A DNA stretch of 32,000 nt, from NCBI RefSeq assembly GCF_000698785.1, contig NZ_CP007536.1:1230001-1262000 (forward strand), given 5' to 3'. The notes under the pieces were generated by a model. It was not told where the DNA came from. It did not search any database and saw nothing but the letters and a program-made list of their open reading frames with translations. This stretch comes from Nitrososphaera viennensis EN76. GTDB lineage: Archaea > Thermoproteota > Nitrososphaeria > Nitrososphaerales > Nitrososphaeraceae. Made by a program: the position numbers and the translations under genes. This document shows, one piece after another, positions 6,649 to 27,927 of this stretch. Position 1 is the first letter of the stretch. Each line of letters opens with the position of its first letter.

Positions 6649-6668
6649 CAGCAAAGAAGAAAAAAGAG

Positions 6669-6824: not shown

Positions 6825-6869
6825 GCCACATACTAGAGAGCGCAAGATTATAACTCTTTTCTTCCCCTT

Positions 6870-7214: not shown

Positions 7215-7327
7215 ACCTCGATAACGGTCGGCAAAACGTAATAAGCATTGCTAAATCGCAAAACCAGGAATTTATCACAAAATCCTTGTTTTAGGATAGC
7301 GCAAAAATGAGGAGGGAGTCACCGTGC

Positions 7328-7936: not shown

Positions 7937-7966
7937 GCGCACTGGTGTCTTGCGAGCAGCACCTAA

Positions 7967-7988
7967 TATTCACTGAGTAAGGTGAATA
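7967..7988. promoter_or_regulatory. 7-bp inverted repeat overlapping the TATA-like box of the secreted-protein gene
   Basis: TATTCAC-tgagtaag-GTGAATA lies 31-52 nt upstream of the ATG at 7936. The minus-strand reading gtgaatattagg contains an AT box. Confidence 0.3.
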
Positions 7989-8043
7989 CAGACAAATTTT
8001 TCATTTTTTGGCTACTGCTACACGCTACATTGCGTTGTTATTG

Positions 8044-8808
8044 TCATTGCCGGGCGGTCACGCCGCCGTCGACTACAAGTACCGTCCCGGTCACCCACTT
8101 TGCTTCGTCCGACGCCAGGTACGCGACTGCGCCTGCAACGTCCTCCGGCTCGCCTATCCTGCGCAGCGGAAACGTCGATTCAAGCACCTTTTTGGCGTTT
8201 TCATCCTGCAGGTACGGCTCTATCATGGAACTCCTGATGGTAGAGGGAGCGACGCAGTTGGACCTGATTCCGTACTGGCCGTACTCGACTGCGATGCTCC
8301 TTGTGAACATGATTACGCCGGCCTTGGTCGCGCCATATACCGCAAGCGGCACCTTTGGTATGGAGCGTATGCCAAGCACCGACGAGATGTTGACGATGCT
8401 CCCGCCCTTGTTGCCGTTCATCATTACAGGGATAACTGCCTTGGTCATCTGGAACGTGCCTATCAGGTTCGTGTCGACAAGCTCGCTCCACTGATCCTCG
8501 GTCATCTCGTGGAAGCAGACAGGGTCGTTTATGCTGCCCGCGTTGTTGACAAGGATGTCTATTCTGTCAAAGGATGATATGGTCTGCTCGACTGCGCTGA
8601 GCACTTCGGCCTCTTTTGTGATGTCGGCAGCAACGGTCAGCGTGTTTTTCTTGTCGCCTGCCTCGGCCGCCGCCTTGGCAAGCCGGTCCCTGTTCCTCCC
8701 TATGAGGACCACCTTGCAGCCCTCTGAAACTAGCCTCTTTACTATAGCCCGCCCAACACCGCCTCCAGCGCCAGTGACGATAGCAACCTTGCCTTTAAGA
8801 AGGACCAT
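8044..8808 (-). CDS. short-chain dehydrogenase/reductase (FabG-like)
   Basis: TGAGGGVG cofactor motif, NNAG, catalytic S...YGATK, and a C-terminal GTVLVVDGG. Confidence 0.9.
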   Translation of the reverse strand: MVLLKGKVAIVTGAGGGVGRAIVKRLVSEGCKVVLIGRNRDRLAKAAAEAGDKKNTLTVAADITKEAEVLSAVEQTISSFDRIDILVNNAGSINDPVCFHEMTEDQWSELVDTNLIGTFQMTKAVIPVMMNGNKGGSIVNISSVLGIRSIPKVPLAVYGATKAGVIMFTRSIAVEYGQYGIRSNCVAPSTIRSSMIEPYLQDENAKKVLESTFPLRRIGEPEDVAGAVAYLASDEAKWVTGTVLVVDGGVTARQ

Positions 8809-8874
8809 ATATGACGGCTAATTGGCAGACTAAACTTTTAAAGTGTTTGAAAGCAGGCGGGACGATTGTGACGA

Positions 8875-9834
8875 CTATTTATCCTTCTTCCCGACGGCCT
8901 TTGCCACGGCCGCTTCCAGTTCTCCGACAATTGCAGAAATGTCAGAGGGGTCGCTCTTGAAGGTCGCGCCCGCCGCATAGTCGTGGCCGCCGCCTTCCGG
9001 GAGGTACGAGGCCACCTGCCTGCATGAAACGCGCTCATTGCTCCGGCGTATGCTCACCTTGCCTTTTGTGCTGTAGAACATGGCAAGGTCGGCGCCGGTT
9101 GCGGCAAATACCTCCTCCGAGAAGAGGCTGCTGTTGAGGTACGGCGACGACTGGACGTACGCCACCTTGATGCTGTCGACAGCTCTTACTTGCAAGGTCG
9201 AGAGCGCCTGCACCTTGGCCTCGTCGCGCAGCTTGGAATACCTGGCATAGTCTTCGTGCATGTCCGTGTCCCACAGGATGCCCTTTGCAGACTTTTTTGC
9301 AAGCGCGGACAGCCGCTCGTAAAAGTCCGGAAAATTCTGGTAGTAGCGTATCAGCTCTGTTATCGGCGTGAGGTACTGGTCTTTAGTGAAAAAGTCCATC
9401 GTGTGCGCCATGCTTGCCAGCTTTTTCGCAAGGTCGTTTTCCGGCACCAGCCTTTCGTACATCAGGTCTGCCGCGCACTTTCCTCCCGACGGATCATGCA
9501 CCAGCTCCGCGTAGTCCTTGACCGCGTCGATTGCGGCCTGCGACCATGGGTGGTGGTCGACCCACATCAGCTTCCACCCGTTGCGCGACGCGTCTGCAAA
9601 TATCTGCCTGCACGCCTCTATCGCGTCGTCGTTCAGGCCAAGGTCTGCGACGATGACAAGCCCGCGCTCCTTTGAAAAGTGCGTCGCAGAGTAGAGAAAG
9701 TTGCCCATCTTTTGCATGTTCTCCACGCCGTAGCCGAGGAACACGGTTGCCGCCTGCGGGTAGCGTATGAGGCCGATTGCGGCAGAGTAGAGCCCGTCAA
9801 GGTCAGACTCGTGGGAAAATATGAGAACCTTCAT
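8875..9834 (-). CDS. DHH/DHHA1-family phosphoesterase (NrnA-like)
   Basis: MKVLIFSHESDLDG, VDHHPW and GGGHDYAAGA motifs. The ATG at 9834 overlaps the HAD stop as ATGA. Confidence 0.8.
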   Translation of the reverse strand: MKVLIFSHESDLDGLYSAAIGLIRYPQAATVFLGYGVENMQKMGNFLYSATHFSKERGLVIVADLGLNDDAIEACRQIFADASRNGWKLMWVDHHPWSQAAIDAVKDYAELVHDPSGGKCAADLMYERLVPENDLAKKLASMAHTMDFFTKDQYLTPITELIRYYQNFPDFYERLSALAKKSAKGILWDTDMHEDYARYSKLRDEAKVQALSTLQVRAVDSIKVAYVQSSPYLNSSLFSEEVFAATGADLAMFYSTKGKVSIRRSNERVSCRQVASYLPEGGGHDYAAGATFKSDPSDISAIVGELEAAVAKAVGKKDK

Positions 9835-10487
9835 TGTCGCAGGCACATCTCCTTTAGCGGGCCCTTTAATGAACTTGTTTTTTCAAAGATCCTGTCTTTT
9901 GCGATGATGCCTTCAAAGTCAGAGTGCAGAAGAGGCGTGTTGTTCAGGACGACGTAGCAGGATATGCCGGCGTTATTTGCCGCGCGCACGCCCAGAGGCG
10001 CGTTTTCCACGACTACCGCGTCCTTGGCAGATACGCGGAGTCTTGAAAGCGCGGTAGTAAACGCAAGCGGGTCGGGCTTGCCCCTCTTTATGTCGTCTGC
10101 CGTTATGATGGCGTCGAATTTTTCTTTTCCGATGGTCTCGTCAAGTACCGACTCGACGTCATGCTTGTTGGAGCCACTTACAACTGCCTTTGGACATGCA
10201 AGGCTTTCAACCATCTCCTTCACGCCTTCGAACGCTTTGGGCTTTTCCATTTCTTTGAACAGTCTGTCTTTTTCCGCCATTATCTTCTTGACAAGCGACA
10301 AATCAGAATTGTGCTCCGCAAGTATCTTTTCTGTCAGCTCTGCCCCGCGCATCCCCTCAAGGACATATATTGTGCGCTTTTCAATCCTGATGCTGGCGAT
10401 ATTCTGAAATGCCTGCACCCATGCCTGCGAATGCGGCGGCATCGAATTTACAAGCACGCCGTCAAGGTCAAAGATGATCCCTTGCAC
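9831..10487 (-). CDS. HAD-superfamily hydrolase (beta-phosphoglucomutase-like subfamily)
   Basis: IIFDLDGVLVNS motif I, SGS motif II, GKPDP, and VVENAPLGVRAA motif IV. GTG start. Confidence 0.85.
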   Translation of the reverse strand: MQGIIFDLDGVLVNSMPPHSQAWVQAFQNIASIRIEKRTIYVLEGMRGAELTEKILAEHNSDLSLVKKIMAEKDRLFKEMEKPKAFEGVKEMVESLACPKAVVSGSNKHDVESVLDETIGKEKFDAIITADDIKRGKPDPLAFTTALSRLRVSAKDAVVVENAPLGVRAANNAGISCYVVLNNTPLLHSDFEGIIAKDRIFEKTSSLKGPLKEMCLRQ

Positions 10488-10531
10488 GACGGAAAAGACT
10501 TGGGTGCGCTATAAATTTGCCACTGGCAGGA

Positions 10532-10948
10532 TTAGCGATACCTTTCCATCCACTCGTCGTTTCGGTAGTGGTCGGGGTTGAGCCTAAAGCCCTGCGTCTG
10601 CTCGTGCGGGACGTCCTTTAGCTTCAGGTTATAGTTCAGCTTTTTCTTCTTCATCATCTTGGTAAGCCATAGCACAAAGCAGTCCTCGATGGTGTTTGCC
10701 TCCTGCTTGTTGATTTCAGGGTAGATATCAAGGAGCACCTCGACGAAATCCGGCTCAAAGTAAAGCATGAAAAAGTCCCACCCGAGGGCCTTGCCGGCGG
10801 ACGAGCACTCGACGTTTCCCTTTGCATGCGCGCCCCATTCCAGGCCGCCGATAAATTCCATTATCCGGGCGTGCTCTTTCTCAAAGTTGATGCAGGAGCC
10901 CTGAATGGCTATCATGGGCGGCTTGTCTGCATACTTGCGGTTCACCAA
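10532..10948 (-). CDS. hypothetical protein
   Basis: 138-aa ORF with TTG start, or 127 aa from the ATG at 10915. An AT box tttacttaaatag lies 30-45 nt upstream of 10948. No family recognised. Confidence 0.5.
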   Translation of the reverse strand: MVNRKYADKPPMIAIQGSCINFEKEHARIMEFIGGLEWGAHAKGNVECSSAGKALGWDFFMLYFEPDFVEVLLDIYPEINKQEANTIEDCFVLWLTKMMKKKKLNYNLKLKDVPHEQTQGFRLNPDHYRNDEWMERYR

Positions 10949-10998
10949 GGCTGTCGCCGCAGTACCTTGGCTGACACTCTATTTAAGTAAATTGCATG

Positions 10999-12645
10999 CT
11001 AGAGGTAGCGCTTTAGCACAGAGGACGCGCGCTCATAACCCAGATCGAGGAAATAGTTGCCAATCCTCGGACCCCTGTCGGCGTTCAGGAACATCCTGTA
11101 CAGCAGCGTGAACAGCTCTTTTGGCTCCATGCCGTTTGCCCGGGCAATGTCAAACACCCTTGACTGGAGGGCCTTGGCGTTTTCCGGCGTCTCTTGCACG
11201 CCTGCAAACTCGCCAAGCACGCCAAGAAGATCAGTTACTGCTTTTTTCTGGCTGTCTGTCAGCTGCACCTCGAACTTTTCTTCGTGCTGGCTGGCGTTGT
11301 CGTCCGCCCAGTTTGCGGCAAGTTGGATCTTGCGCATTATCGCGTCGCCCTTTTCCTTGACCATGCCATATTTTACAAGGCGGGAAAACACCTTTTCAAG
11401 CCTGTCCGGGTCGCTTGGGTATATCGACGCCTGCTGTACAAGAAAGCGATAGAGCGCGTGCGGCGCTGGCTGCTTTGGCGGGTCCAGCTTGTTGATGTAT
11501 TCGTATATGCCCTTTATCTTGGTCAGTTTCGCAGGGTTGTCCTCCTTTACCTTGCCAAAGTAGAGATCCTCGTACGAGTCGTACTCGTCCATCAAAGCCG
11601 GCACGTCTTCAAGCCCGACGTGGTGCGTGCCGGCGATGCGCTTGAACAGCAACAGCAGTATCGATTCCGGCGTGCCGTACCTCAGCCACATCTGCGGCGT
11701 CAGCACGTTGCCGGCAGACTTGCTTATCTTTTTGCCCGACTTGTCAAGGAACATTTCGTATTTCACGTGCAGCGGATGGGGGTGCCCCAGTATCTCGTCG
11801 CAGACCCAGTCGTTTACGCGCACCGAGTCCATGATGTCCTTGCCGTACGCCTCAAAGCGGACGTCAAACGCCTGCCAGCGCGCGGCAAACTCGACCTTCC
11901 ACGCAAGCTTGCCCTCGCCTTTTGTAATGTCGGCCTCGCCCCTGTGGCCGCAGCCGGGGACCTCGTTCTTGCCTATCCTGCTCCCCTTGCATGTGTACGT
12001 CACTTTCTTTTCATCAGGAAGGTACTTTTCTGCGGCCGCCGTGTACAGCCGGCCGCAACTGGAACATACGGGAAAATAGGGGAGCACGCTCACGTACTTG
12101 TCCTGCCCCACAAACTCGGCTATCTTTTTGCCCAGCTTTTCGCTGCTCTGCAGTATCCTGTCTATCTGGCTGACGAGTTTTCCAGACTTGTAGGCTTCAC
12201 GTCCGCTCTGGAAGCGGTATTTTATCCCGGCCCTGTCAAGGCCGTCAAGGAGAAGGCTGCTCATGTGCGCGCCGTACGACGCGTGGCAGCTGCCGAAAGG
12301 ATCAGGGATTTCCGAAACTGGCCTTGCGATGTGGTCCTTGAGCCAGTCGGGAAGGCCGGCGGGTATCTTGCGCAGGCCGTCCATGTCGTCTGAGTAAGCA
12401 ATCAGCTCAGCTCTGTAGCCCATGTTCTGTAGCGCAAGTGCAATCCCGTACGCCCTGACGGCGTCTCCCATGCTTCCAATGTGCGGGATGCCGGAGGCTC
12501 CAAGGCCGCTTTCCACCCGGATAAGATCGAGTTTGCGGCCCAGCTTTTTTTCCCTCTTTATCAGCGTGTCCGCTACCTTGTCAAGCCACGTGCCCTTGCC
12601 AATCACTATCTGCTGCTGATTATGATTATCTTCTTCTTCATTCAT
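10999..12645 (-). CDS. lysS: lysine--tRNA ligase, class I
   Basis: SGIPHIGSMGD (HIGH-type), KISKSAGN (KMSKS-type), and the overall archaeal class I LysRS layout. ATG at 12645, 6 nt after the elp3 stop. Confidence 0.92.
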   Translation of the reverse strand: MNEEEDNHNQQQIVIGKGTWLDKVADTLIKREKKLGRKLDLIRVESGLGASGIPHIGSMGDAVRAYGIALALQNMGYRAELIAYSDDMDGLRKIPAGLPDWLKDHIARPVSEIPDPFGSCHASYGAHMSSLLLDGLDRAGIKYRFQSGREAYKSGKLVSQIDRILQSSEKLGKKIAEFVGQDKYVSVLPYFPVCSSCGRLYTAAAEKYLPDEKKVTYTCKGSRIGKNEVPGCGHRGEADITKGEGKLAWKVEFAARWQAFDVRFEAYGKDIMDSVRVNDWVCDEILGHPHPLHVKYEMFLDKSGKKISKSAGNVLTPQMWLRYGTPESILLLLFKRIAGTHHVGLEDVPALMDEYDSYEDLYFGKVKEDNPAKLTKIKGIYEYINKLDPPKQPAPHALYRFLVQQASIYPSDPDRLEKVFSRLVKYGMVKEKGDAIMRKIQLAANWADDNASQHEEKFEVQLTDSQKKAVTDLLGVLGEFAGVQETPENAKALQSRVFDIARANGMEPKELFTLLYRMFLNADRGPRIGNYFLDLGYERASSVLKRYL

Positions 12646-15954: not shown

Positions 15955-16908
15955 TTAGGCCTTTCTGATGCCGCTGAACGGCGCGTCAAGTATGGTCCTT
16001 CTTGCCACCCTTACAACCTCAAACACTGCGTTGCGCAGCAGGTTTGCCGTATCTCCAAGCATCCTGACTATTACTCCCGAGTTGTCTGGAAGTATGCTTG
16101 CACCGGCGTAGAGATCCTTAGAGTAGCCAGCCAAGGCCGAGTTGATCTTGTCATGCAGTTCGGCGACGTATTTTGACGGTGCAAGCACGTACATGCTTCC
16201 CACGGTATCATAGTTTTCCAGCACTCCAAAAGCCTTCATGCTCCGCTTTTTTGGCTCCAGGATTGCAACGTCTACAAATCTCATGTTGCCGTCCTGGTTT
16301 GCGGCCTGGGCCTTCATGTAGCAGATGTCGTACGCAAACGACTCGCCCCTTGCAACCCTGCCAGGAGTCATGATCTCCGAGTACAGCATGGTAGCGCTGT
16401 CATGGACGCGCAGGTTGGCCACCTGGTAGAACCGTGAATCGACGTACGGTATTATCTGGTCCGGGATGTACTCGAAATAGCATCCTTCTCCAACGTCGAC
16501 GTTCACTATCTGCGTTGCAAAATTCTTTTCCATCCTGTAGACACGCGTGGCTCCCTGCGTGGTAATGTGCGCAAGGGCGTTGTTGCGGAGCGTGATATCC
16601 ATGCGGTACCTGTCGCCCTGAAGAATCCCGCCAGACGGCGAGATGATGTAAAGGTACGCCATCGACGGCAGCGCCTCTTCGAGGTACAGCGCGCGCTGGG
16701 TGTAGAGCGGAACCCGGGAGTACTGCTCCTTTACAGAGGTCTTGCCGTTGTGCTTGTCCCTTTCCAGCCTCAGTATCAGGCCGCCAAGCTTGCCGGGATT
16801 TCCCACGCCAAGCTGGTCCAGCTTTGAACCGTACGTCTGCACTTCAGGCGGTATTGCATCCGGGATGTAGTACTCCAGGTCGTCGACAGTCGTCTTTTTT
16901 ATCATCAT
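15955..16908 (-). CDS. ureD: urease accessory protein UreD (UreH)
   Basis: Typical UreD pattern (SPSGGILQGDRY...) and position after ureG. The ATG at 16908 overlaps the ureG stop by 1 nt. Confidence 0.85.
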   Translation of the reverse strand: MMIKKTTVDDLEYYIPDAIPPEVQTYGSKLDQLGVGNPGKLGGLILRLERDKHNGKTSVKEQYSRVPLYTQRALYLEEALPSMAYLYIISPSGGILQGDRYRMDITLRNNALAHITTQGATRVYRMEKNFATQIVNVDVGEGCYFEYIPDQIIPYVDSRFYQVANLRVHDSATMLYSEIMTPGRVARGESFAYDICYMKAQAANQDGNMRFVDVAILEPKKRSMKAFGVLENYDTVGSMYVLAPSKYVAELHDKINSALAGYSKDLYAGASILPDNSGVIVRMLGDTANLLRNAVFEVVRVARRTILDAPFSGIRKA

Positions 16909-17567
16909 CAAACAGCGGCCTTTGGTGGCGATTCAAACAGGACGTCCCTGATGATGTGATCTGCAACCTGCTGGACGCCCTGGCCGGACCTGCAGTTGAC
17001 AAACACGTATGGTTTGCCGCCCCGGATTGCCTTTGCGTCTCTTTCCATTATGGCAAGGTCGGCGCCGACATGGGGAGCCAAGTCGATCTTGTTTATGACC
17101 AATAGGTCGCAGGTCTCTATTCCAAGCCCCCGCTTTCGCGGGTACTTGTCGCCGCCGGACACGTCTATTATGTAGATGAAATAGTCTGCAAGGGCGGGGC
17201 TGAAGGTGGTGGTGATGTTGTCGCCTCCGCTTTCGATGAGTATGAGATCCAGGTAGCCGTGCTTGGACTCCATTTCCTCTACGACTGAAATGTTCATCGA
17301 CGGGTCTTCCCTGACTGCGGTGTGAGGGCATCCGCCTGTCGCCAGCCCTATCACCAGCTCTTCAGGAATCAAGTGCTGCCGGGTGGCAAGGTTCTTTCTC
17401 ATCCTGTCCGCGTCTTCGCGTGAAATCACGTCGTTTGAGATAATGCCAGCCTTGTACCCCTTGGAGGCTAGAATCGGCACCACCATCTCTATCAGCATAG
17501 TTTTTCCCGATCCGACGGGGCCTCCGATCCCCACCCGTGGAATCCTTTTGACTGTTGCGCTGCTCAT
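16908..17567 (-). CDS. ureG: urease accessory GTPase UreG
   Basis: RVGIGGPVGSGKT P-loop, the CPHTAVRED region, ESGGDN, and NKIDL. Confidence 0.95.
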   Translation of the reverse strand: MSSATVKRIPRVGIGGPVGSGKTMLIEMVVPILASKGYKAGIISNDVISREDADRMRKNLATRQHLIPEELVIGLATGGCPHTAVREDPSMNISVVEEMESKHGYLDLILIESGGDNITTTFSPALADYFIYIIDVSGGDKYPRKRGLGIETCDLLVINKIDLAPHVGADLAIMERDAKAIRGGKPYVFVNCRSGQGVQQVADHIIRDVLFESPPKAAV

Positions 17568-17602: not shown

Positions 17603-18310
17603 TCAAGTAATAAACATTTTAGAAGTCATATTTTCGTGCGACATCTGCACTATGTCGACCTGCGGGGCAAACTGCCACATGCCTTCAACCGGCCTGTTTA
17701 TGTTTTCATCGACGGTCCTGGCTATCACAGGCTTGAGCTCGTCGATCATCTTCTGGCCTTCAAGGTGCTGGAACATGCCAAGCCGCAGGGCCGCTCCCAC
17801 CATCCCTACCGAAAACGAGTACAGCATGGCAAGGCCTGCCTTCCTCTTTGGGATGGACAGCGCGTTGCACGCAACTGCCAGCGCGACTGGATAGGGGCCA
17901 AAAGCCTGACCGCTCTTTATCGCCGCGGCATATTCGTTGAGCACCTTATCTTTGGTCACAAAAAAGTTCGTGCACCTTAGCATCTGGGTCCCGGACCTTG
18001 CAGAGGCGTTTCTTATCTCCTGGACCAGCTTCATTGAATGCAGGATCTTGTCCACCCGGATAACATTCTTGACGTCGGACTTTGACGCGTACTCGTAGGC
18101 GTTGCCCAGCGCCGCGCAGTCTGCAGGCCCCATCTGGTGCTCGATGTATATCCTTATGAGCTCGCGAAGCTCTGCAGGCTTCATCTTCCTTCCGCTGTAA
18201 AAGAGCGCTTCAAGCCCGTTTGAGGTCGTGTACATCCCGGTCGGAAAGAACGAGTCGGCAAGCTGCATCATGCTCAGGTCTGCGATGTCGCTGCTATCGC
18301 TAGTGCTCAT
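17603..18310 (-). CDS. ureF: urease accessory protein UreF
   Basis: MQLADSFFPTGMYTTSNGLE is the UreF signature. The ATG at 18310 overlaps the ureE end by 11 nt; the track start at 18337 is TTG. Confidence 0.85.
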   Translation of the reverse strand: MSTSDSSDIADLSMMQLADSFFPTGMYTTSNGLEALFYSGRKMKPAELRELIRIYIEHQMGPADCAALGNAYEYASKSDVKNVIRVDKILHSMKLVQEIRNASARSGTQMLRCTNFFVTKDKVLNEYAAAIKSGQAFGPYPVALAVACNALSIPKRKAGLAMLYSFSVGMVGAALRLGMFQHLEGQKMIDELKPVIARTVDENINRPVEGMWQFAPQVDIVQMSHENMTSKMFIT

Positions 18311-18815
18311 GTACGTCCATCCCCTCCTCCGGCTCAAACACCATCCTGGCGCCCCTTATTTCCAGGTGCTCGTTCATATGCCCGAAAAGCTTGCGGAACA
18401 TCTCAAGCTCGCTGTCGGCCTGGATGGGGAAATAGATCCTGCTGCCTTCCAGCTTGATCGGCCTGTGCAGGTTCCCGATTGTGTGGCCTATCCTCACTGG
18501 CACCTCTATCAGGTCGTCTTTATGCAGGTTATCCTTGACCTCCACCACCGCGACATTTTCCGGCTCTAGCTCGACTACCACCATCCTGTCGGCCGTCAAG
18601 AGCACGACATCGCCGTGCCTGAGCTTGCTCCCCGGCGGGAGGACGATTGCAATGTCCGTCCCCTTGTCGGAAGATTTGCGCATCCTTACCCTCTGGGATT
18701 CTAGGCGGCTTATCCTCACCGTCTCGCCCGGGATCTGGCGGTATTTTTCCTTCAGCGAGGCGTCGCGGTAAATGTTGCCAAGTATCGAGGTTGCAGTTAT
18801 CATCGCAGTCGTCAT
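18300..18815 (-). CDS. ureE: urease accessory metallochaperone UreE (no His-rich tail)
   Basis: IGHTIGNLHRPI matches the UreE GNxH motif. It ends ...DVHEH. The ATG at 18815 lies 4 nt after the upstream stop. Confidence 0.8.
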   Translation of the reverse strand: MTTAMITATSILGNIYRDASLKEKYRQIPGETVRISRLESQRVRMRKSSDKGTDIAIVLPPGSKLRHGDVVLLTADRMVVVELEPENVAVVEVKDNLHKDDLIEVPVRIGHTIGNLHRPIKLEGSRIYFPIQADSELEMFRKLFGHMNEHLEIRGARMVFEPEEGMDVHEH

Positions 18816-18819
18816 TATT

Positions 18820-19152
18820 TTATTCAGGCAACCCCTTCTTTTTCTTCTTTGATTCTGCAATTATGGCGTCTTTATTTACGACTCTTATCATGTCTGCCAG
18901 CCTCTTGGTATAGTCGACTGTTCCATAGTGCTTGTAGGCCGACCTGTCAACCGTAGCAAAGATCATGCCGCTGTCGTCCATTTTTACGCGGGCGCCTTTT
19001 TCAAATTTTTCTGCTATGATGCAGGTCGTGACCCTGTGATCTTGAAAGTCAAGATTCAGGTGCGAGGCAGGGTCGACAAGCCCCGACATCGAGTCTATCT
19101 TGCCAGCAAACACCGTGACGTGCCTTACCTGCGTGGGATCTATCACCTTCAT
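18820..19152 (-). CDS. hypothetical protein inside the urease cluster (110 aa from the ATG; 130 aa if the GTG at 19212 is used)
   Basis: ORF between the chaperonin paralog and ureE. The ATG at 19152 is preceded by GGGAGA. An alternative GTG at 19212 overlaps the chaperonin stop as GTGA. Lys-rich C-terminus. No family recognised. Confidence 0.5.
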   Translation of the reverse strand: MKVIDPTQVRHVTVFAGKIDSMSGLVDPASHLNLDFQDHRVTTCIIAEKFEKGARVKMDDSGMIFATVDRSAYKHYGTVDYTKRLADMIRVVNKDAIIAESKKKKKGLPE

Positions 19153-19208
19153 GTCTTCTCCCACGTTTGCTTCCTCGACGCAGTGCCGGATTTGCAATTT
19201 TATCAGCG

Positions 19209-20783
19209 TCACCTCTTTGTTTCCGTCATTGCCTGCGGGCTCAGGTCCTCGGCCGCAAGGTTCCTGTCTATGCGCAGGACCGACTTGGCTATCTCGCCGG
19301 CGGCCTTTAACGCCATGGTCTTGACCATGAGCGGATCTATGACCCCGATGTTCCACATGTCCACCGGCTCGCCAGAGTTGATGTCGATGCCGTAGCCGGG
19401 TGGAGAGGTCTTGGCGGTCATGACCCTTTCAAGCCCGTTAAATCCTGCGTTGGTCAGTATCTGCCGCATTATGCTTTCCAGCGCGGCGGCTACCACTTCG
19501 AGGCCCACCTGCTCAAGCCCCTTGAGCCTCGCGTTCTTGACCTTGTCCATTATGTGCAGCTCCGCAGCGCCTCCTCCCGGGACCACGCCCGTGTTAAGGG
19601 CCGCCTCGGCCGCGTTTACGCCGTCAATTGCCGCCCGCCATCTCTCAAGCGACGTCTCTTTGGTCGTTCCCGAGACCACTATGGTCACCATGTTTTTGCC
19701 GGCGCCGCCTTCGATGTATACGATGCCGTTGTCCTCGTCTTCGTAGATCCGCTCGGCCCTGCCCAGGATGTCGTGCTTTTTCAGGTCGTCGGCCACCCTT
19801 GCGGGCTTGGCGCCGGTGTACCTTGTCAGGTGGTCGATCTCCTCCGTGGCTACCCTTGCTGCAAAGACGCCCCTTGCCACAAGCATGTCCTCGACGGCCT
19901 GGTCCACCTCCGGCGACGCGATCAGGATCGCGTTGGCGCCGGTCTTGAGCATTGCGTCGACCATTTCCCGGGACTTGGCCATCCTGTCGTTTTCCATGAG
20001 CAGGATCTCTTGGTAGTTCTTGTTCTCCTTGATCCACGACTCCTTGACGGGCTTTAGGTCCATCTTTGTGATCAGAATCCTTGCGCCCCTCACTTCCTGC
20101 GGGACCTCCGGGTCGAGCCTCTTTCGTTCAAGCACTATTCCGTTGACCACCTGGTCGTCCATGCTGGTCTTGCGAAGCACCATGATGGCCTTGCCAAAGT
20201 CGTACTCGCCGTTGTACTTGGCGTTTTCGCCCACTGTCCGGAGGGCGGTGATGACCATCTTGGCGAGCCGGGCGCCGTCCAGTTTCGAGGAGAGCGAGGT
20301 CGTCACCACGTGCTCCAGCTCGCGATCGTTGATGGATATGGACTTGGCATCCTCCTCAAGAAGCTGGCAGGCATGCCTGACGCCGCTTTCGATGCCCTCG
20401 ACCACCTTGGTCGGGTGGACCCCAAGCTCCTTTATGAGCCGCTTGCCTTCCTTTATCATCTCTGCAGACATTACCACTGCCGTGGTCGTCCCGTCCCCGA
20501 CCAGCTGCTCCTGCCTCTCTGCTATCTCCACTATCATTCTTGCAACGGGGTGGATGGCCTTGAGCGAGAGCAGGATGGTGACGCCGTCGTTTGAAACGTG
20601 CCTGTTCATGGCCTGGTCTATAAGCAGCTTGTCCAGGCCCTTTGGGCCCAGAGTCGTCCTCACGCAGTCGGCCACCGCCATGACCGCGCTTGAATTTGAT
20701 TCCAGAGCGTTGTACTCCACGTGCTCTGCTATTGGACGCCAGACTCCATAATTAGGTGCGGACATATTGGCAGCCGTTTGCAT
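19209..20783 (-). CDS. divergent group II chaperonin (thermosome/CCT-like) paralog
   Basis: TTLGPKGLDKLL, NDGVTIL, GDGTTT, VVPGGGAAE and IDPLMVK motifs. 524 aa. An alternative ATG at 20765 fits the TATA-like box better. Confidence 0.85.
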   Translation of the reverse strand: MQTAANMSAPNYGVWRPIAEHVEYNALESNSSAVMAVADCVRTTLGPKGLDKLLIDQAMNRHVSNDGVTILLSLKAIHPVARMIVEIAERQEQLVGDGTTTAVVMSAEMIKEGKRLIKELGVHPTKVVEGIESGVRHACQLLEEDAKSISINDRELEHVVTTSLSSKLDGARLAKMVITALRTVGENAKYNGEYDFGKAIMVLRKTSMDDQVVNGIVLERKRLDPEVPQEVRGARILITKMDLKPVKESWIKENKNYQEILLMENDRMAKSREMVDAMLKTGANAILIASPEVDQAVEDMLVARGVFAARVATEEIDHLTRYTGAKPARVADDLKKHDILGRAERIYEDEDNGIVYIEGGAGKNMVTIVVSGTTKETSLERWRAAIDGVNAAEAALNTGVVPGGGAAELHIMDKVKNARLKGLEQVGLEVVAAALESIMRQILTNAGFNGLERVMTAKTSPPGYGIDINSGEPVDMWNIGVIDPLMVKTMALKAAGEIAKSVLRIDRNLAAEDLSPQAMTETKR

Positions 20784-20803
20784 TTCGGTCGAGATAAAGG
20801 TAT

Positions 20804-20832
20804 ATTGCGCATGTATGCAAAAAATTGCGCAT
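20804..20832. promoter_or_regulatory. two direct ATTGCGCAT repeats 20 nt apart, next to a TATA-like box upstream of the chaperonin paralog
   Basis: Copies at 20804-20812 and 20824-20832. On the gene strand the order is ATGCGCAAT-N11-ATGCGCAAT-ATACCTTTAT. Confidence 0.4.
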
Positions 20833-20863
20833 TTCAGGCAAGGATTGAAAAGAAATTGAAGGG

Positions 20864-20881
20864 AGTGGGCGCAGGCCCACT
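20864..20881 (-). terminator. stem-loop plus T-rich tract just after ureC
   Basis: AGTGGGC-ctgc-GCCCACT is a perfect 7-bp stem beginning 14 nt after the ureC stop. It is followed on the gene strand by cccttcaatttcttttc. Confidence 0.4.
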
Positions 20882-20894
20882 TTATCCTCTTCTT

Positions 20895-22622
20895 CTAGGC
20901 CATGAAGTACCTCTGCGCCAGCGACAGCTCCTCCGCAGGCCCCACGGTTGCGATCTTGCCGTCCAGCTTGACCTCGTACGTCTCTGGGTCGATGGTTATC
21001 TTGGGTGTCGCGTCGTTCCACATCATGTTCTTCTTGCTGATGTTCCTGCAGTTTTTGACAGGCAGGCAGATTTTTTCCAGGCCCAGCTTTTGCGGGACGC
21101 CCAGCTCCATCGCCCTCTTGGACGTGAAGGTGTAGCTCGTCTTGTGGACTGCCTTGCCCATGGCGCCAAACATCGGTCTGTAGTAGACCGGCTCAGGGGT
21201 CGGGAGCGACGCGTTGGGGTCGCCCATTATCGACCATGCAATAAAGCCTCCTTTCAGAACCATCTTGGGCTTGGCGGGGAAGAACGACATTGGATACATC
21301 ACAATGTCCGCGTACTTGCCCACTTCAAGCGATCCAAGGTACTCCGAGACGCCGTGCGTTATGGCGGGGTTTATCGTGGTCTTGGCGATGTACCTCTTTG
21401 CCCGGAAATTGTCGTTGTCGCTTGCATCCTGCTCTAGCTTGCCCTTCATCTTCTTCATCTTGTCTGCAGTCTGCCACGCGCGGATGACCACCTCGCCTAT
21501 CCTCCCCATCGCCTGGCTGTCTGACGAGTACATGGAAAGCACACCCTCGTCGTGCAGGACGTCCTCTGCTGCGATGGTTTCCGCCCTGATCCTGGACTCG
21601 GCAAACGCCACGTCTTCAGCGACTGCAGGGTTCAGGTGGTGACAGAACATCAGCATGTCCAGGTGCTCGTCCACGGTGTTCTTGGTGTAGGGTCTTGTCG
21701 GGTTGGTCGACGACGGCAGCGCAAACATCTCTCCGGCGATCTTCATGATGTCCGGCGCGTGTCCCCCGCCGGCCCCTTCCGTGTGGTACGTGTGGACCAC
21801 CCTGCCGTCTATAGCGTTGATGGTATCCTCGACGTACGCGCACTCGTTTATAGAGTCGGTGTGGATTGCGACCTGCGTGTCCGTAAGGTCCGCCGCCCTG
21901 AGCGAGGCGTCCAGAACGGCCGCGGTGGTGCCCCAGTCCTCGTGATCCTTCAGGCCGCAGACGCCCGCGTCAATCTGCTCAAGCTGGGTCGCCAGCGTCG
22001 GATGCGAGTCGTTTCCTTTGCCCAAAAAGCCCCAGTTCATTGGAGTGTCCTCGACTGCTTCCATCATCCTGCTTATGTTGTACACGCCGGGCGTGCACGT
22101 TGTCGCGTTTGTGCCGTCCGCAGGCCCGGTTCCTCCGCCTATCATGTTGCAGATGCCGTTGCTGATGCCGTCTATGTACTGCTGCGGGGCGATCATGTGT
22201 ATGTGCGTGTCAAAGTGGCCGGGCGTGCATATCGTATGCTCGCCGGCGGTCGCTTCCGTGCAGGCCGACACCACCATGTTCGGGTTAACCCCGTCCATTG
22301 TGAGCGGGTTGCCGGCCTTTCCAACCCCTGCTATCTTGCCGTCCTTGATGCCAATATCAGCCTTGACTATCCCAAGCACGGGATCCAGGATGACCGCGTT
22401 TGTTATGACAAAGTCCAAGGCGCCATTCTTGTTCGTGACACCGGGCGTCTGGGCAAGGCCGTCTCTGAGCGTCTTGCCTCCGCCAAAGACACACTCGTCT
22501 CCAGGCGTGATAAGATCTTTTTCTATCTGTATCATGAGGTCCGTGTCTCCAAGCCTCACCTTGTCGCCGGTGGTCGGCCCGAACAGGTCGGTGTATTGTT
22601 TGCGGGTTAATTTCAGGACCAT
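20895..22622 (-). CDS. ureC: urease alpha subunit
   Basis: 575 aa. N-terminal [29 protein letters not shown] (HxH Ni ligands), the MFCHHLNP region and TINPAITHG. Confidence 0.97.
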
Positions 22623-22636: not shown

Positions 22637-23005
22637 CTAAGCTCCGTTAAAGCCCTGCTTCTGGGCTTTTTCGACGGCTGCGCGCATGACCATGCTCGAG
22701 TTCAGGCTGCCCATGGTCAGGCCGTTGAACCCGAAGCAGACCCTGGCGCCTCCTATTTCACACAGCTCCACCTCTTTGCTGTCCCCCGGCTCGAACCTTA
22801 TCGAAGTGCCGGCCGGTATGTTGAGCCTGTAGCCGAACGCCTTTTCCCGCGGAAAGTCAAGTGCCCTGTTTACTTCAAAGAAATGCGTATGCGAACCTAT
22901 CTGGCAAGGCCTGTCCCCCTTGTTCTTCACGGTGATCTTTACCGTCTTTCTGTTTGTGTTGCACATCACCGGTTCAGAGGCCAGAACGTATTCACCGGGC
23001 ATCAT
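22637..23005 (-). CDS. ureB: urease beta subunit
   Basis: MMPGEY...[17 protein letters not shown]...[18 protein letters not shown]. The ATG at 23005 is preceded by AAGGAGGT. An in-frame GTG at 23083 would add a 26-aa Lys-rich extension. Confidence 0.88.
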
Positions 23006-23089
23006 TGGCCTAGCGACCTCCTTTTTTTTGATGATTTTCTTTTGGCTTCTTCTTTTTTTTGTTTTACCATTTGTTTTCTTCACCCACTC

Positions 23090-23392
23090 CTATTGTACTG
23101 GATCATGCACGGTGACCAGCTTTGTGCCGTCTGGAAAAGTCGCTTCCACTTGGACCGTGTGAATCATGTCCGGCACTCCGGACATAACGTCGTTTTTCTT
23201 CAGGATGGTTCTGGCAGACTGCATCAGCTGTGCGACGGTTTTTCCTTCTCTTGCGCCCTCCACGACATAGTTGGCTATATAAGCCACCGTCTCTGGGTAA
23301 TTCAGTTTTATACCTCGCTTTTTCCTCCCTTCAGCGATCTGGGCAGCCGTCCAGATCCACATCTTTTCCATCTCTCTTGGTGCAAGCATCAT
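23090..23392 (-). CDS. ureA: urease gamma subunit
   Basis: 100 aa. [12 protein letters not shown]...[10 protein letters not shown]...[19 protein letters not shown]. Confidence 0.92.
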
Positions 23393-23552: not shown

Positions 23553-24158
23553 TTACTTTTCTGCTATCCTTATTGGAAGGGCAACTCCAAGCCAGAAAAA
23601 GACAGACTCGTACAGCCCGTTCTTGTTCACTGGCAGCGTGAAATCGTAGGTCTTGCCGTCCGTCGTCTTGATGGTCAGAAAGTTTGAGACTATGGCCCGC
23701 CCCATCATGTTTGTCACCATAGTTTCCCACCCCTTGCGGAGGGTAAACTCGCGCATGTCCGAGTACCAGATGGAGTAGCCAAAGTTCTCGCTCCGGAGAA
23801 GGTCTTCAGGAGTAAAGTTTGCCTGCTTTCGGATCTTTGAAGTGTCGTCTTTGCCACCATCATTATTATTATTCATGGTCAGCAGGTACGGGTACGGCGC
23901 AAGCCCGGCCACGTACCCAAGGTCGGCGAATTTTGCCAGGAAGCTTTTCTTGGACACGATAACCCGCTCGGTGGTAAAGTCGAGCGTAAAGTTCTTTGAC
24001 CAGCCGCCCTTGCTCTCGGAACTCAGCCGCAAGACGACTTCTTCCAGATGGTTCTCCTTGCACCAAGCCATGTAGGTTCTCACCCTTTCCGAGTCTGACA
24101 TGCCCGGCAGTTTTCCCTTGTACCGTTTTGTGAACCTGTCAAATGTTTGCGGGTTCAT
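23553..24158 (-). CDS. hypothetical protein (201 aa) between the UT gene and ureA
   Basis: Clean ATG ORF with no hydrophobic segments and a poly-Asn/Asp-rich central loop. No family recognised. Confidence 0.6.
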   Translation of the reverse strand: MNPQTFDRFTKRYKGKLPGMSDSERVRTYMAWCKENHLEEVVLRLSSESKGGWSKNFTLDFTTERVIVSKKSFLAKFADLGYVAGLAPYPYLLTMNNNNDGGKDDTSKIRKQANFTPEDLLRSENFGYSIWYSDMREFTLRKGWETMVTNMMGRAIVSNFLTIKTTDGKTYDFTLPVNKNGLYESVFFWLGVALPIRIAEK

Positions 24159-24240: not shown

Positions 24241-25449
24241 TCATGGCCTTGACCACCCTATCCCGGCGGGAATGTTCAGGAACCCCGAAGTCGCAAGGAG
24301 GAATACCCACGCAGTAAAGACGAACGGGCCCGTAAGCGCCGGCAGGCCCCACTGGCCGAAGAACCTTTGAAGGCCCGGCATCAGGAAGGAGCAGCCTACC
24401 GTTGCAAACACGGCCATCATAAAAGACTGCGGCGTCAGGGGAACAAAGCTTGTCAGCGCTATCATCACCAGCACCTGATTGAATCCGTGCAACCCCATCC
24501 TTGTCTCTGCGGTGGGCAGCTTTGTCAGTATGGCCATTGCCGCGCCAATGCCCGAGCCAAGGAGGGCCATCAGCCCGGCCAGGTACAGCGGCGAAAACTC
24601 GTCCCACTGCGACGTGTAACCGTTGGTCCACCACGGCCTGTCCTGCACACCGCTGATGAACGGGGCAAGCTCGAACGCAAGCGTCAGACCGACGACCCAG
24701 AACACGCCCGTCTTCCAGTTTTCGACAAAGGTGACCTGCGATACGCCCTTCAGGGTCGCTATCATGAACTCCTTTGCTGTCCACTTGAAGCTGTTGCTTG
24801 TGTTAGGGTTGCCGCTTTCTTTTATCAGCTCCTCTTTGGGCGGCGGGGCCGGAGCCGGCCATATGTCGTGGCCAAACCTCTTGGACGCATACATCATGGC
24901 CCACGTGGTAAAGATGAACGACGACGTAAAGCCCGGTATCGCCCAGGAATTGGCGATGCCGTTCAGTACGAACATGTCTCCCATCAGGTGCGCAAATGCC
25001 ATCCACGTAAATGCGGTGATGGCAGCGCCAAAGACGGAGATAAAGAAGGTGGCCTTGTTGGCCTTGACAAACGGCCCAGACCAGAACGCCATGCCCGTGA
25101 GTATAGAGTTGTAGCCGAACAGGCCGAATGTCACAAGGTCGTACGACGCGCCGGCCATTATCGCTATTCCTGCTCCGATAAGGCCTGACAGCACCATCAT
25201 TCCGCCTGCCTTGCGCGATGCCAGAAACACACCTGCCAGAATCAGTATGCCGGTTATCGGAGAGCTGAAAAGCGGCACTTCCGCGATCCCGTTGAAGAGT
25301 ATGAAGAAGAAATCCATCGCGGGATTTCCAGTAGAGTATGTTGGGATAGCCATTGATTTCCAGTGCGAGGAGTGCGGTTTAACAATTTGTAAGCAAGATG
25401 AATTTATTAATGCAGAATAACCCAAAGCGATCGCAAGAGTCGCAATCAT
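24241..25449 (-). CDS. UT-family urea channel (two-repeat architecture)
   Basis: GLFGYNSILTG and GLHGFNQVL, plus PGFTSSFIFTTW and LTGPFVFTAW, are the paired UT repeat signatures. LKGVSQVTFVEN is also present. Alternative ATGs lie at 25353 and 25317. Confidence 0.85.
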   Translation of the reverse strand: MIATLAIALGYSALINSSCLQIVKPHSSHWKSMAIPTYSTGNPAMDFFFILFNGIAEVPLFSSPITGILILAGVFLASRKAGGMMVLSGLIGAGIAIMAGASYDLVTFGLFGYNSILTGMAFWSGPFVKANKATFFISVFGAAITAFTWMAFAHLMGDMFVLNGIANSWAIPGFTSSFIFTTWAMMYASKRFGHDIWPAPAPPPKEELIKESGNPNTSNSFKWTAKEFMIATLKGVSQVTFVENWKTGVFWVVGLTLAFELAPFISGVQDRPWWTNGYTSQWDEFSPLYLAGLMALLGSGIGAAMAILTKLPTAETRMGLHGFNQVLVMIALTSFVPLTPQSFMMAVFATVGCSFLMPGLQRFFGQWGLPALTGPFVFTAWVFLLATSGFLNIPAGIGWSRP

Positions 25450-25574: not shown

Positions 25575-25608
25575 ATCACCATCATCATTATCGTCATCGT
25601 CATCATCA
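25575..25608 (-). repeat. TGA/GAT trinucleotide tract starting at the DUR3-USP stop codon
   Basis: The minus strand in frame reads TGA TGA TGA CGA TGA CGA TAA TGA TGA TGG TGA. It shares the octamer TGACGATG with tracts at 1589-1613, 15728-15763 and 31321-31353. Confidence 0.7.
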
Positions 25609-27927
25609 CTTCATCAGCACCACAGGCGTTGACGAAGTCTTTAGCACCTTTCGGGTCACGCTCCCCATCTCTGCTGCTCTGTTGTTGATTCCGTTAATCC
25701 CCATCACGATCATGCTTGCCCCGATTTTTTCTGCAACTTCAACGATCTTGGAGGCAGGGTCTCCCATCTTTACAATCCTCACATATTCTCCTGCCCTGCG
25801 CGGGACTATTACGCTGTTGAGCAGGATCCTCCCCTCCTTTTCCATCCTGGAGGTCAGTTCCTCATCGACTGACTCGTCGCTTTCTTCTTCCGGCCATTCG
25901 ATAACGTAGAGCAGGTATATCTTTGCCTCGTTTATGCCGTAGATGTTTGTTGCATAGTTGAGCGCGCGCAGCGACTGCCCCGACCCATCTATCGGTACGA
26001 GGATCCTTTTGGCATAGTACAGCTCGTCAGAAGTGGCAGCCGGCTTTGGAGGTCCTTCCATGTCCTGCGTGGCAATTGCGTTTGTCTTTTGGCCCATGAT
26101 GTGCAGGACCTTGGTGATCCCGACTCGGGCCTCGATCAAAGGCAGGAATATGATAACTGCTGCTGCAGATCCTGCCCACGCCACTGCAATTCCAACCCAT
26201 ATAGTGTAGGTTGTTTCGGTAAAGACATAGCCGGAAAGGTAAAGCGGCATCGGCCAGGCCACGACCAGAACGAGCGTGAGGGCAATGGCGGCTTTGTAGC
26301 CAACCTTGAGAGATTTCTTCAGGTATTCCTCGTTTTCGCTTTCAAACAACCCCTTGATCTTTCCGTCGACAACCAGTATCTTTTGCTTCATGAGGCTCAG
26401 GTCAAAGTTGCTTGGCCTGATGGTACTCCCTATCAGGGCGACGGCCGCCCCGACAAATATGGACGAAAGGTTGCCTGCAAGCAGAGGTATGTCATGTCCG
26501 GTAGAGTGGACCGATATTTCGCCATAGAGCACGTACGCGGTTCCCACCCACACGCTCACGCCGCAGACAAGGCCGGCCAAGGCGCCGGCCGTGGCAGCAA
26601 CCCTGTTTGTCTTTTTCCACAGGACAAGCGTGACTGGGACCACAGCGGAACCTATCAGGACTCCCATCGCAAGGTAGACGTACTGGAGGCTGACTCCGAT
26701 CTGGAGAAGCACCAGCGCCAGCACCCCCATGCCGATGCCAAAGGCCACTATCGAATAGCGCGAAATGCGCATCAGCTCCCTGCCGCTTGCCGACGGCTTT
26801 AGGTAGGTCCTGTAAACGTCGTACGTGACGAGCGACGAGACCGCGACAAGCTCTGCAGAGCCGGCCGCAGTGACGGCCGTGAACAGTATGGTGAGCATGA
26901 GTATGGCTCCAAGTTCTCCAAGGACGTGCGAGGCAGCCGTGGGAGCCACCAGCCCCATACTGATCTCTTCTGGAGTGAGCTGCACGTTGACCGCGACTGC
27001 GGCAAGCCCAAGCGTCGTGGCAAGGGTAAACGGTATGGCAAACCATGCGAGGCCGCCTGCAAGGAAGCCCTTGAATGCAGAGCGCGGCCCTGCAGCTATT
27101 GCGCGCTGCCAGTATGCCTGATCCACAAAAACGGTCCCGAAGTTTCCTGCTATGTTTATCACGCCAAATATCAGTGCGCCAGTAGACGCCAGCGTCAGGT
27201 ACGAACCTGTCGCGTTGCCTTCAACCGGGCGAAGCGCCGCGGCGGTGCTCAGCTTTTCAAACATGCCAGAAATCCCGCCTATCTTGGGATCGATAAAGTA
27301 CACTGCCGTGACAAAGACCAGCACGACGATAAAGAGGAAAACCGTGTTCATGTACTCTGCAAGAAAGGTCGCCTTGAGCCCTCCAGAGAACGTGTAGATT
27401 ATCACGCCTATAGGGATGAGAAAGGCGGCAAGCGAGATGTTTATCCCGGTCAGCGAGCTTAGAGCTGCGGCCCCTCCTAGGACAAGCATCGCGGTGACAA
27501 CTGTGTTGGTCATTAGCGCAAAGAAGAGGAACACCTTGTGGGAGCCCTTGCCAAACCGAGCGTAGATTATCTCCGGAAAGGTGTGGGACGAGGGGGCCTT
27601 GCGCTTGAGCTCTGTGGCAAGAATTGCAAACAGGACCACCTGTATGCTGGCCCCTGCCGCGTACCAGAACGGCCCGCTGACTCCAAACTGGTAGGCAACT
27701 GTGGAGGACTGGAGGAGAGTTGCCGCCCATGTCCATGCCGACACCACCGACGACGCTATCAGCCCGACCTTTACGGACCTTCCAGCAGTTGAGAACCATT
27801 CAAAGGTCTTCTTGGTGCCAAGCCATTTGGTCTCCACCCTTACCAGCAGGATAACTGCAAGCGCCATGACCAGTCCCACTCCAAGGAGGATAAAGTATCC
27901 CAGACCTTCGGAGAGGACTACTTCCAT
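25606..27927 (-). CDS. dur3: DUR3-type SSS urea transporter fused to a C-terminal universal stress protein domain
   Basis: STAGRSVKVGLIASSVVSAWTWAATLLQSSTVAYQFGVSGPFWYAAGASIQ is the DUR3 signature region as I recall it. The last ~140 aa (ILVPIDGSGQS...MIVMGINGINNRAAEMGSVTRKVLKTSSTPVVLMK) form a USP domain. Confidence 0.9.
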   Translation of the reverse strand: MEVVLSEGLGYFILLGVGLVMALAVILLVRVETKWLGTKKTFEWFSTAGRSVKVGLIASSVVSAWTWAATLLQSSTVAYQFGVSGPFWYAAGASIQVVLFAILATELKRKAPSSHTFPEIIYARFGKGSHKVFLFFALMTNTVVTAMLVLGGAAALSSLTGINISLAAFLIPIGVIIYTFSGGLKATFLAEYMNTVFLFIVVLVFVTAVYFIDPKIGGISGMFEKLSTAAALRPVEGNATGSYLTLASTGALIFGVINIAGNFGTVFVDQAYWQRAIAAGPRSAFKGFLAGGLAWFAIPFTLATTLGLAAVAVNVQLTPEEISMGLVAPTAASHVLGELGAILMLTILFTAVTAAGSAELVAVSSLVTYDVYRTYLKPSASGRELMRISRYSIVAFGIGMGVLALVLLQIGVSLQYVYLAMGVLIGSAVVPVTLVLWKKTNRVAATAGALAGLVCGVSVWVGTAYVLYGEISVHSTGHDIPLLAGNLSSIFVGAAVALIGSTIRPSNFDLSLMKQKILVVDGKIKGLFESENEEYLKKSLKVGYKAAIALTLVLVVAWPMPLYLSGYVFTETTYTIWVGIAVAWAGSAAAVIIFLPLIEARVGITKVLHIMGQKTNAIATQDMEGPPKPAATSDELYYAKRILVPIDGSGQSLRALNYATNIYGINEAKIYLLYVIEWPEEESDESVDEELTSRMEKEGRILLNSVIVPRRAGEYVRIVKMGDPASKIVEVAEKIGASMIVMGINGINNRAAEMGSVTRKVLKTSSTPVVLMK

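Follow-up and report, generated by a model that had tools for sequence, protein, structure and literature searches.

A Group III-like chaperonin in the urease cluster of Nitrososphaera viennensis EN76 and its conserved link to urea-utilisation genes

The 32,000-nucleotide stretch of the Nitrososphaera viennensis EN76 genome that was analysed here (contig NZ_CP007536.1, positions 1,230,001 to 1,262,000; the whole stretch is called the window) carries a complete urea-utilisation locus on its minus strand. In the direction of transcription, an SSS-family symporter, a UT-family urea transporter and an open reading frame (ORF) of 201 amino acids are followed by ureABC, a chaperonin gene, a small ORF of 125 amino acids, and ureEFGD; purM, an ELP3-like gene and lysS lie downstream of ureD (Table 1). 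This gene order is shared with N. viennensis NVIE_014630-NVIE_014790, which reads lysS-ELP3-purM-ureDGFE, a hypothetical gene, the chaperonin gene, ureCBA, a second hypothetical gene, UT and SSS. According to the textbook, urease maturation needs UreD, UreF, UreG and UreE only. The chaperonin is not homologous to any of these proteins: Cpn60_TCP1 is the only domain detected in it, and the four accessory proteins are encoded by separate genes of the cluster. Our analysis indicates that it belongs to a lineage close to the bacterial Group III chaperonins that is found only beside urea genes.

The placement of the gene in the urease loci of ammonia-oxidising archaea (AOA) is already known and has been in print since 2018, which answers with a yes the question of the initial annotation of the window whether genome papers on these archaea had noted it. 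Abby et al. 2018 (Front Microbiol 9:28, PMC5797428) described an Hsp60 homolog that is conserved in the urease loci of the Nitrososphaerales and of Ca. Nitrosocaldus, proposed that it stabilises urease, and suggested that the locus was acquired en bloc from bacteria. Their protein (a subset of arCOG01257; NVIE_014730 in N. viennensis) is of the same family, has the same position between ureC and ureE and the same proposed role, and is likewise distinct from the conserved thermosome. Nothing essential differs, and the gene in the window is another member. The present analysis contributes the affinity to Group III, the relatives in bacteria and Euryarchaeota, the partner ORF with its neighbouring promoter region, and data on expression. 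A literature search, with most subscription journals outside its reach, found no paper that joins the urease-locus Hsp60 with a Group III affinity, none on the relatives outside the AOA, on the partner ORF or on the promoter, none that tests function, and no experiment that links the protein to urease.

The chaperonin ORF matches PF00118 at E=2.1e-105 (353.7 bits, cut-off 34.3) over residues 37-507, corresponding to profile positions 1-484 of 490, and the closest database protein, from a Nitrososphaera metagenome-assembled genome (MAG), is 94% identical. The initial annotation, made from the sequence alone, had reported a 524-amino acid gene on the same strand between ureABC and ureEFGD. ORF coordinates and Pfam matches bear out the position, and the ORF is as described, but not the length of the protein: ATG 20765 (518 amino acids) is a likelier start than ATG 20783 because of the spacing of a TATA-like box and because of the N termini of the orthologs, which are mostly 518-519 amino acids long and begin with MSxPN. 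All nucleotide-pocket motifs quoted in that annotation were found (NDGVTI at residues 65-70, GDGTTT at 96-101 and VVPGGGAAE at 400-408), its alignment by eye of the AAIDGV segment holds, with Asp387 at the catalytic Asp of Group II and Group III chaperonins, and the Gly/Met-rich tail is indeed missing from the C terminus (...SPQAMTETKR). D66, D97, T99, T100, D387 and the glycines G403-405 are invariant in 16 of 16 sampled members of the clade described below. An AlphaFold2 model (mean predicted local distance difference test score, pLDDT, 80.9) has the three-domain fold with equatorial, intermediate and apical domains. The apical domain carries a helical protrusion at about residues 248-280 (helices 248-252 and 257-280), the lid region comprising 55 residues as compared to a median of 57 in Group II, and Foldseek aligns the model with thermosomes in the closed and open state, MmCpn, CCT and Group III subunits at template modelling (TM) scores of 0.72-0.83. 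Judged by its sequence and its predicted structure, the window gene is a real lid-bearing chaperonin with intact ATPase residues.

Some database entries call the protein 'archaeal chaperonin' or 'thermosome subunit beta', and the initial annotation had regarded it as a divergent thermosome (group II) paralog. This assignment is contradicted by sub-cut-off scores, by the best sequence match in the PDB and by the trees. With the NCBIfam thermosome models, the protein reaches 309, 299 and 290 bits against cut-offs of 671, 450 and 400, and the bona fide Group III chaperonin P0246 scores 301-306 bits with the same models. The canonical thermosome L009b attains 738-782 bits, above the cut-offs, and is encoded on a contig that also carries an ortholog of the window chaperonin with 82% identity; N. 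viennensis possesses ths1-4 besides the urease-cluster chaperonin gene. With canonical thermosomes co-occurring, the protein is neither the sole nor the housekeeping thermosome, and to this extent the initial annotation was right to set it apart. Among the sequences in the PDB the best match is 9RWQ, a reconstructed Group III ancestor (296 bits), and the Group II ancestor 9RWP obtains 242 bits. A search of 1.84 billion cluster representatives returned only two close full-length 50% clusters (76% and 44% identity), and beyond these one protein at 37% identity, then proteins at 33-37%. Two of these next-nearest matches, P0246 and P0247, are encoded in hrcA-cpn-grpE-dnaK-dnaJ operons, the hallmark of Group III, and further members of the Group III clade come from Peptococcaceae, Bacillota and Eremiobacterota.

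Phylogenetic trees were calculated by neighbour-joining only, from two alignments with two distance measures and without a Group I outgroup; the taxon sample consisted of the 150 best representative matches to the query, and the first tree comprised 141 sequences. The AOA chaperonins form a clade (100% bootstrap), and so do the 16 members of what we call the urea-linked clade, which unites AOA, bacterial and euryarchaeal proteins (100%). The urea-linked clade and 25 bacterial Group III sequences group together with 100% support, and an equally well supported split separates the two from about 110 thermosome-type sequences. In the first tree, bacterial Group III is monophyletic without the urea-linked clade (94%). 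The nucleotide-sensing loop is 18 residues long in all 16 urea-linked members, as compared to 15 in Group III and 19-23 (median 21) in Group II, and the urea-linked clade has a 5-residue deletion of its own near residue 460. Profile hidden Markov models give the window protein 414 bits for Group III and 374 for Group II; for the AOA proteins the Group III score is ahead by 25-57 bits, the euryarchaeal member shows a modest preference for Group III, and the bacterial subclade shows none, its Group III and Group II scores being about equal. Because the preference is modest and is lacking in the bacterial subclade, we have lowered the claim from membership in Group III: on the basis of the sequences compared, we call the urea-linked chaperonins a sister lineage of Group III rather than a nested member.

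The comparison with characterised chaperonins leads to the same placement. Group III (An et al. 2017, PMC5635000; Techtmann and Robb 2010), as represented by Ch-CPN of Carboxydothermus hydrogenoformans (PDB 5X9U/5X9V), is nearest by tree and by best PDB sequence match. It has in common with the window chaperonin a 2-residue and a 1-residue deletion, Asp483 (mostly Glu in Group II), the NAGFNxLE motif, the lack of the N-terminal 'PVLVL' strand and of the C-terminal tail, the built-in lid, and a single gene. The two differ in that the nucleotide-sensing loop, which An et al. 2017 (PMC5635000) report as absent from Group III chaperonins, is shortened by 3 residues rather than 6 in the window chaperonin, and in that the latter retains a Group II-like TSxxSK motif (Lys or Arg). 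Moreover, the hrcA-grpE-dnaK-dnaJ operon of Group III contrasts with the urea loci of the window gene and all members of its clade, and the hosts of the urea-linked lineage are mostly archaeal. The archaeal thermosomes (Group II) share with the window chaperonin the three-domain fold, the lid formed by a helical protrusion, the archaeal host, and the HPT and TSxxSK motifs, whereas the window chaperonin stays below their cut-offs, is phylogenetically separate, has a shorter nucleotide-sensing loop, lacks their N-terminal strand and tail, and is confined to urea loci. By analogy with Group III, whose homo-hexadecamer closes when ATP binds, the oligomer is probably a homo-16-mer. An et al. 2017 (PMC5635000) already mentioned thaumarchaeal chaperonins of a non-canonical kind that resemble the Group III prototype.

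The initial annotation had proposed to examine synteny in related genomes, and this comparison, performed by tblastn of the window proteins onto fetched loci, found the link to the ure genes kept in every related urease locus examined. All 83 AOA-type loci contain the chaperonin gene followed by the 125-aa ORF; ureC lies on the other side of the chaperonin gene in 45 of them, and in most of the others the contig ends there. The proteins encoded at the same position are 70-94% identical and come from Nitrososphaera, Nitrosocosmicus and Nitrosopolaris MAGs. A second architecture is found in ten bacterial loci with chaperonins of 43-46% identity: here, ureABC, the small ORF and ureEFGD precede the chaperonin gene, and an SSS transporter gene follows where the contig continues. 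Loci of this bacterial architecture are L001, L022, L025, L026 and L089-L097; the MAG labels of the bacterial loci are Scalinduaceae, Brocadiaceae and Neomarinimicrobiota, and urease is known from the literature in some Scalindua. One long locus of this kind is clearly bacterial because of its neighbouring genes, which encode an urt-like ABC transporter, Amt-PII, a DUF1573 protein, a histidine kinase and a LuxR-type regulator. In the third architecture, that of a euryarchaeal MAG (36% identity), the chaperonin gene is convergent with ureD and stands beside a UT gene. Taken together, the lineage was found only beside urea genes, in more than 90 loci from two domains with three architectures, and the linkage persists down to 36% chaperonin identity. 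Ranked by identity, the lineages come in the same order, with AOA first, then bacteria, then the euryarchaeon, for the chaperonin, UreD, UreF and small ORF alike, and this parallel ranking fits inheritance and transfer as a block.

Three loci are unusual. On a 5.1-Mb Gram-negative contig (L088, 9600-11566), an intact chaperonin gene (44% identical product) has two transposase genes and the fragment of a decayed ureD next to it, and other ure genes were not seen nearby. In a Methanomassiliicoccus MAG (CAJKRY01; L028, 8713-11461), a clade-member chaperonin gene is accompanied by a divergently oriented UT urea transporter gene, and the neighbours include SulP, ion channel, form III RuBisCO and AMP phosphorylase-like genes. 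On a soil metagenome contig (L155, 2523-2700), the small ORF and ureE come straight after ureABC; the chaperonin gene is gone, and its promoter ATACCTTTATTTTT as well as a 'GTGTCAA' remnant of the first codons are retained.

The 125-aa ORF starts at a TTG at 19197 rather than at the start of the 178-aa ORF that contains it. None of its 136 detectable homologs has a Pfam domain, Pfam at E <= 10, applied to it and to the 201-aa ORF, gave only a chance-level match to DUF6235, and its AlphaFold2 model (pLDDT 79) found no fold match in the PDB. The AOA, bacterial and euryarchaeal proteins share conserved histidine motifs (IRH, RH, THLNLD, DH and HYG). In all three kinds of cluster the ORF precedes ureE immediately, following either ureC or the chaperonin gene. 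Among the loci that were recovered through the small ORF, it never occurs in a cluster type without the chaperonin, save in L155 and in truncated or split contigs. On a marine contig of bacterial type (L098, 9983-13052), ureABC and the small ORF are followed by a gene for a 773-aa multi-pass membrane protein instead of ureEFGD and the chaperonin gene; this protein has no similarity to the Ure proteins or the chaperonin of the window, to which the comparison was limited, with no scan of family libraries. Thus, the small ORF stays with ureC when the cluster splits. Its conserved histidines and its position make it a candidate for a new urease accessory protein or a metal-binding, possibly nickel-binding, protein.

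A sigma-70 promoter and intrinsic-terminator scan is uninformative for an archaeon and was replaced by a comparison of the intergenic regions across loci. The promoter-like signals that had been pointed out upstream of the chaperonin gene correspond to a conserved TTTAT[CT]T box, which is present in 45 of 53 AOA-type loci, mostly 31-35 nucleotides upstream of the start codon of the MSxPNYG sequence; in the window, the box is only 15 nucleotides upstream of the first ATG, 20783. This conservation supports the box as a putative internal promoter of a separate chaperonin unit, and the mRNA is most likely leaderless or has a short leader. The hairpin after ureC is real as well (GTGGGCCTGCGCCCAC at 20865-20880, GTGGGC-CTGC-GCCCAC, followed by a T-rich run), though its folding energy is unexceptional (z = -1.2) and is weak evidence alone; T-rich tracts after ureC recur in other loci. 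Hairpin and tract support a separate unit of the chaperonin gene, the small ORF and ureEFGD, though transcription from ureABC may read through into it. The direct repeat ATGCGCAAT is not conserved in other loci and may be a lineage-specific regulator site.

Table 1. Features of the urea-utilisation locus in the window (coordinates are window positions)
Feature	Coordinates	Strand	Remarks
Chaperonin ORF	19209..20783	-	524 codons, uninterrupted; Pfam Cpn60_TCP1 (PF00118)
Likely chaperonin gene	19209..20765	-	518 aa; Cpn60/TCP-1 family, Group III-like; start from TATA spacing and ortholog N termini
Small ORF	18820..19197	-	125 aa; TTG start 10 nt after chaperonin stop
TATA-like box TTTATCT	20792..20798	-	33 nt upstream of ATG 20765; cross-locus conservation
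Direct repeat ATGCGCAAT	20824-20832 and 20804-20812	-	copies 11 nt apart; immediately upstream of TATA box
GC hairpin and T-rich tract after ureC stop	20842..20880	-	terminator-like
ureA	23090-23392	-	Pfam urease structural set (Urease_gamma, Urease_beta, Urease_alpha, Amidohydro_1)
ureB	22637-23083	-	Pfam urease structural families
ureC	20895-22622	-	Pfam urease structural families
ureE	18300-18860 (ORF)	-	likely start ATG 18815; Pfam UreE_N/UreE_C
ureF	17603-18337	-	Pfam UreF
ureG	16908-17567	-	Pfam cobW
ureD	15955-16911	-	Pfam UreD
201-aa ORF between UT gene and ureA	23553-24158	-	no Pfam or NCBIfam match
UT-family urea transporter	24241-25449	-	Pfam UT
SSS symporter (DUR3-like)	25606-27927	-	Pfam SSF and Usp

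Co-expression with the ure genes, which the initial annotation had asked for on urea, is seen in N. viennensis exposed to 3,4-dimethylpyrazole phosphate (DMPP), as documented in the supplements of a 2026 preprint (bioRxiv 10.64898/2026.05.10.724060), from which all expression and proteome values given here are taken. NVIE_014730, listed as 'putative chaperonin Hsp60/Cpn60/TCP-1', is induced by +1.81 log2 (adjusted P value 6.5e-4) and the small ORF NVIE_014720 by +1.79, along with ureA1 (+3.00), ureB1 (+2.54), ureC1 (+2.48), ureG (+2.32), ureD (+1.58) and the UT gene (+2.73); the flanking purM changes by -0.66. NVIE_014770, which by gene order has the position of the 201-aa ORF, responds with +2.66. 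Over 12 h, the regularised log values of the chaperonin gene rise from 11.5 to 14.0, parallel to ureC1 (13.7 to 16.7), and ths1 remains nearly flat (11.0 to 11.8). The authors of the preprint do not comment on the chaperonin.

What might the chaperonin do in these clusters? With a probability of roughly 60%, we infer that it is dedicated to the urease system as its client, which it would help to fold, assemble or stabilise; a dedicated role of this kind had been put forward in the initial annotation and is plausible and now better supported. On this reading, the lidded, ATP-hydrolysing chaperonin, from a lineage that is sister to bacterial Group III and tied to urea-utilisation genes, would have a TATA-box promoter of its own directly after ureC, and its mRNA would probably be leaderless and run on into the 125-aa ORF; the gene is induced together with the structural and accessory genes of urease. 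Candidate clients are the UreABC apoprotein and the activation complex of UreD, UreF, UreG and UreE, and urease activity would benefit. A precedent comes from Helicobacter pylori, where the chaperonin system HspA/HspB (GroES/GroEL) raises or stabilises the activity of urease; both Abby et al. 2018 and the initial annotation cite it. Compared by description only, the H. pylori system differs from the one considered here: it is Group I, it is encoded outside the urease operon, its homology to the window chaperonin does not extend beyond the Cpn60 superfamily, and HspA acts via a His-rich nickel-binding tail.

Several observations weigh against a dedicated role in the urease system. First, L155 is apparently a clean natural in-situ deletion of the chaperonin gene, judging from the remnants in its sequence, so that the chaperonin is not universally required, and urease-positive Nitrosopumilales lack the gene as well (Abby et al. 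2018, PMC5797428). Second, the apical, client-binding domain diverges fast: its identity between the AOA and the bacterial subclade is 27-28% and to the euryarchaeal protein 15-17%, as compared to 57-58% and 45-47%, respectively, for the equatorial domain and 63-65% for UreC, and this is not what a fixed client interface predicts. Third, the pair of UT and chaperonin genes in L028 has no urease gene within 10 kb (21 kb seen). Finally, the NVIE_014730 protein is missing from the proteome table despite its abundant mRNA, and the small ORF protein is listed there at late time points. The chaperonin is thus probably helpful to urease and not strictly indispensable.

The same observations on the apical domain, on L155 and on the Nitrosopumilales would suit a general stress or starvation chaperonin with many clients that happens to be encoded among the ure genes and is induced along with them when ammonia or energy is limiting, and other chaperones of N. 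viennensis, Hsp20 and a thermosome, likewise respond to DMPP. We consider this explanation unlikely: canonical thermosomes are already present in the same genomes, and a general chaperone is not expected to keep its linkage to urea genes through independent rearrangements and transfers, as this lineage does across its more than 90 loci. The client or partner might also lie elsewhere in urea utilisation than in UreABC, and the small ORF with its conserved histidines, an aggregation-prone accessory protein of the UreD type, or the cytosolic parts of a transporter come to mind. In the non-AOA loci the chaperonin gene always adjoins a urea transporter gene (SSS or UT), after ureD, the UT-chaperonin pair of L028 persists without a nearby urease, and in the loci retrieved the small ORF and the chaperonin have the same distribution. 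However, membrane transporters are unlikely clients of a chaperonin, and in the AOA the gene has ureC on one side and the small ORF on the other; to us, this possibility appears improbable. A role other than folding, be it the storage or delivery of nickel in the manner of the His-rich tail of H. pylori HspA or a scaffold without an ATPase cycle, would be in keeping with a nickel-enzyme cluster and with that precedent. It is very improbable, and nickel storage is rejected, as the protein contains 9 His and 2 Cys in 524 residues and no His-rich tract, the ATP-binding and catalytic residues are invariant across the clade, and conserved histidines are found in the neighbouring small ORF instead. 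That the protein is one of the housekeeping thermosome subunits, as its Group II-like fold, its lid and some annotations might suggest, can practically be dismissed in view of its scores below all thermosome cut-offs, the fully supported split from the thermosome-type sequences, and the canonical thermosomes alongside it.

If the chaperonin is dedicated to the urease system, it is tempting to speculate further, although we regard the following as a tentative and rather doubtful extension. Together with the chaperonin and the 125-aa ORF, the urease genes would make up a 'self-chaperoned' module that moves horizontally and is common to soil and thermophilic AOA, to Planctomycetes of the anammox type and to an archaeon resembling the Methanomassiliicoccales. 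To the known chaperonin groups, this would add a fourth lineage, sister to Group III and dedicated to its client, with a nucleotide-sensing loop that stands between those of Groups II and III; its obligate client would be urease or the complex that activates urease, and the small ORF would provide a new nickel or adaptor factor.

Other features of the window and of related contigs are mentioned for completeness. The 201-aa ORF is kept at the same position in Nitrososphaerales loci (35-61% identity). The SSS urea symporter ends in a universal stress protein (Usp) domain, which spans residues 640-772. A 548-aa ORF (10999-12645) that was considered as a second chaperonin in the window turned out to be a class I lysyl-tRNA synthetase. 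In N. viennensis, ths1 directly adjoins a second urease set, ureA2B2C2 (NVIE_014990-015020), which is a second, unexplained adjacency of chaperonin and urease genes, and on the Nitrososphaera contig L009 the canonical thermosome gene (18319-19989, minus strand) lies about 3.5 kb beyond ureD. Finally, a 1057-aa protein composed of two fused chaperonin units (L007, in the region 3366-11174) may be another enzyme-linked chaperonin; the genes next to its own encode MtrH-like and B12-binding methyltransferases, DsrE/H proteins and one more chaperonin, of 568 amino acids.

The value of this analysis is a sharper, testable question rather than a discovery. Urea is a major substrate for soil nitrifiers, and a need for the chaperonin could explain why archaeal ureases are difficult to express heterologously. 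Kept with the urease genes in more than one domain, the chaperonin would be one of the rare lid-bearing chaperonins of prokaryotes that are dedicated to a client, and its lineage bears on the relation between the Group II and Group III chaperonins.

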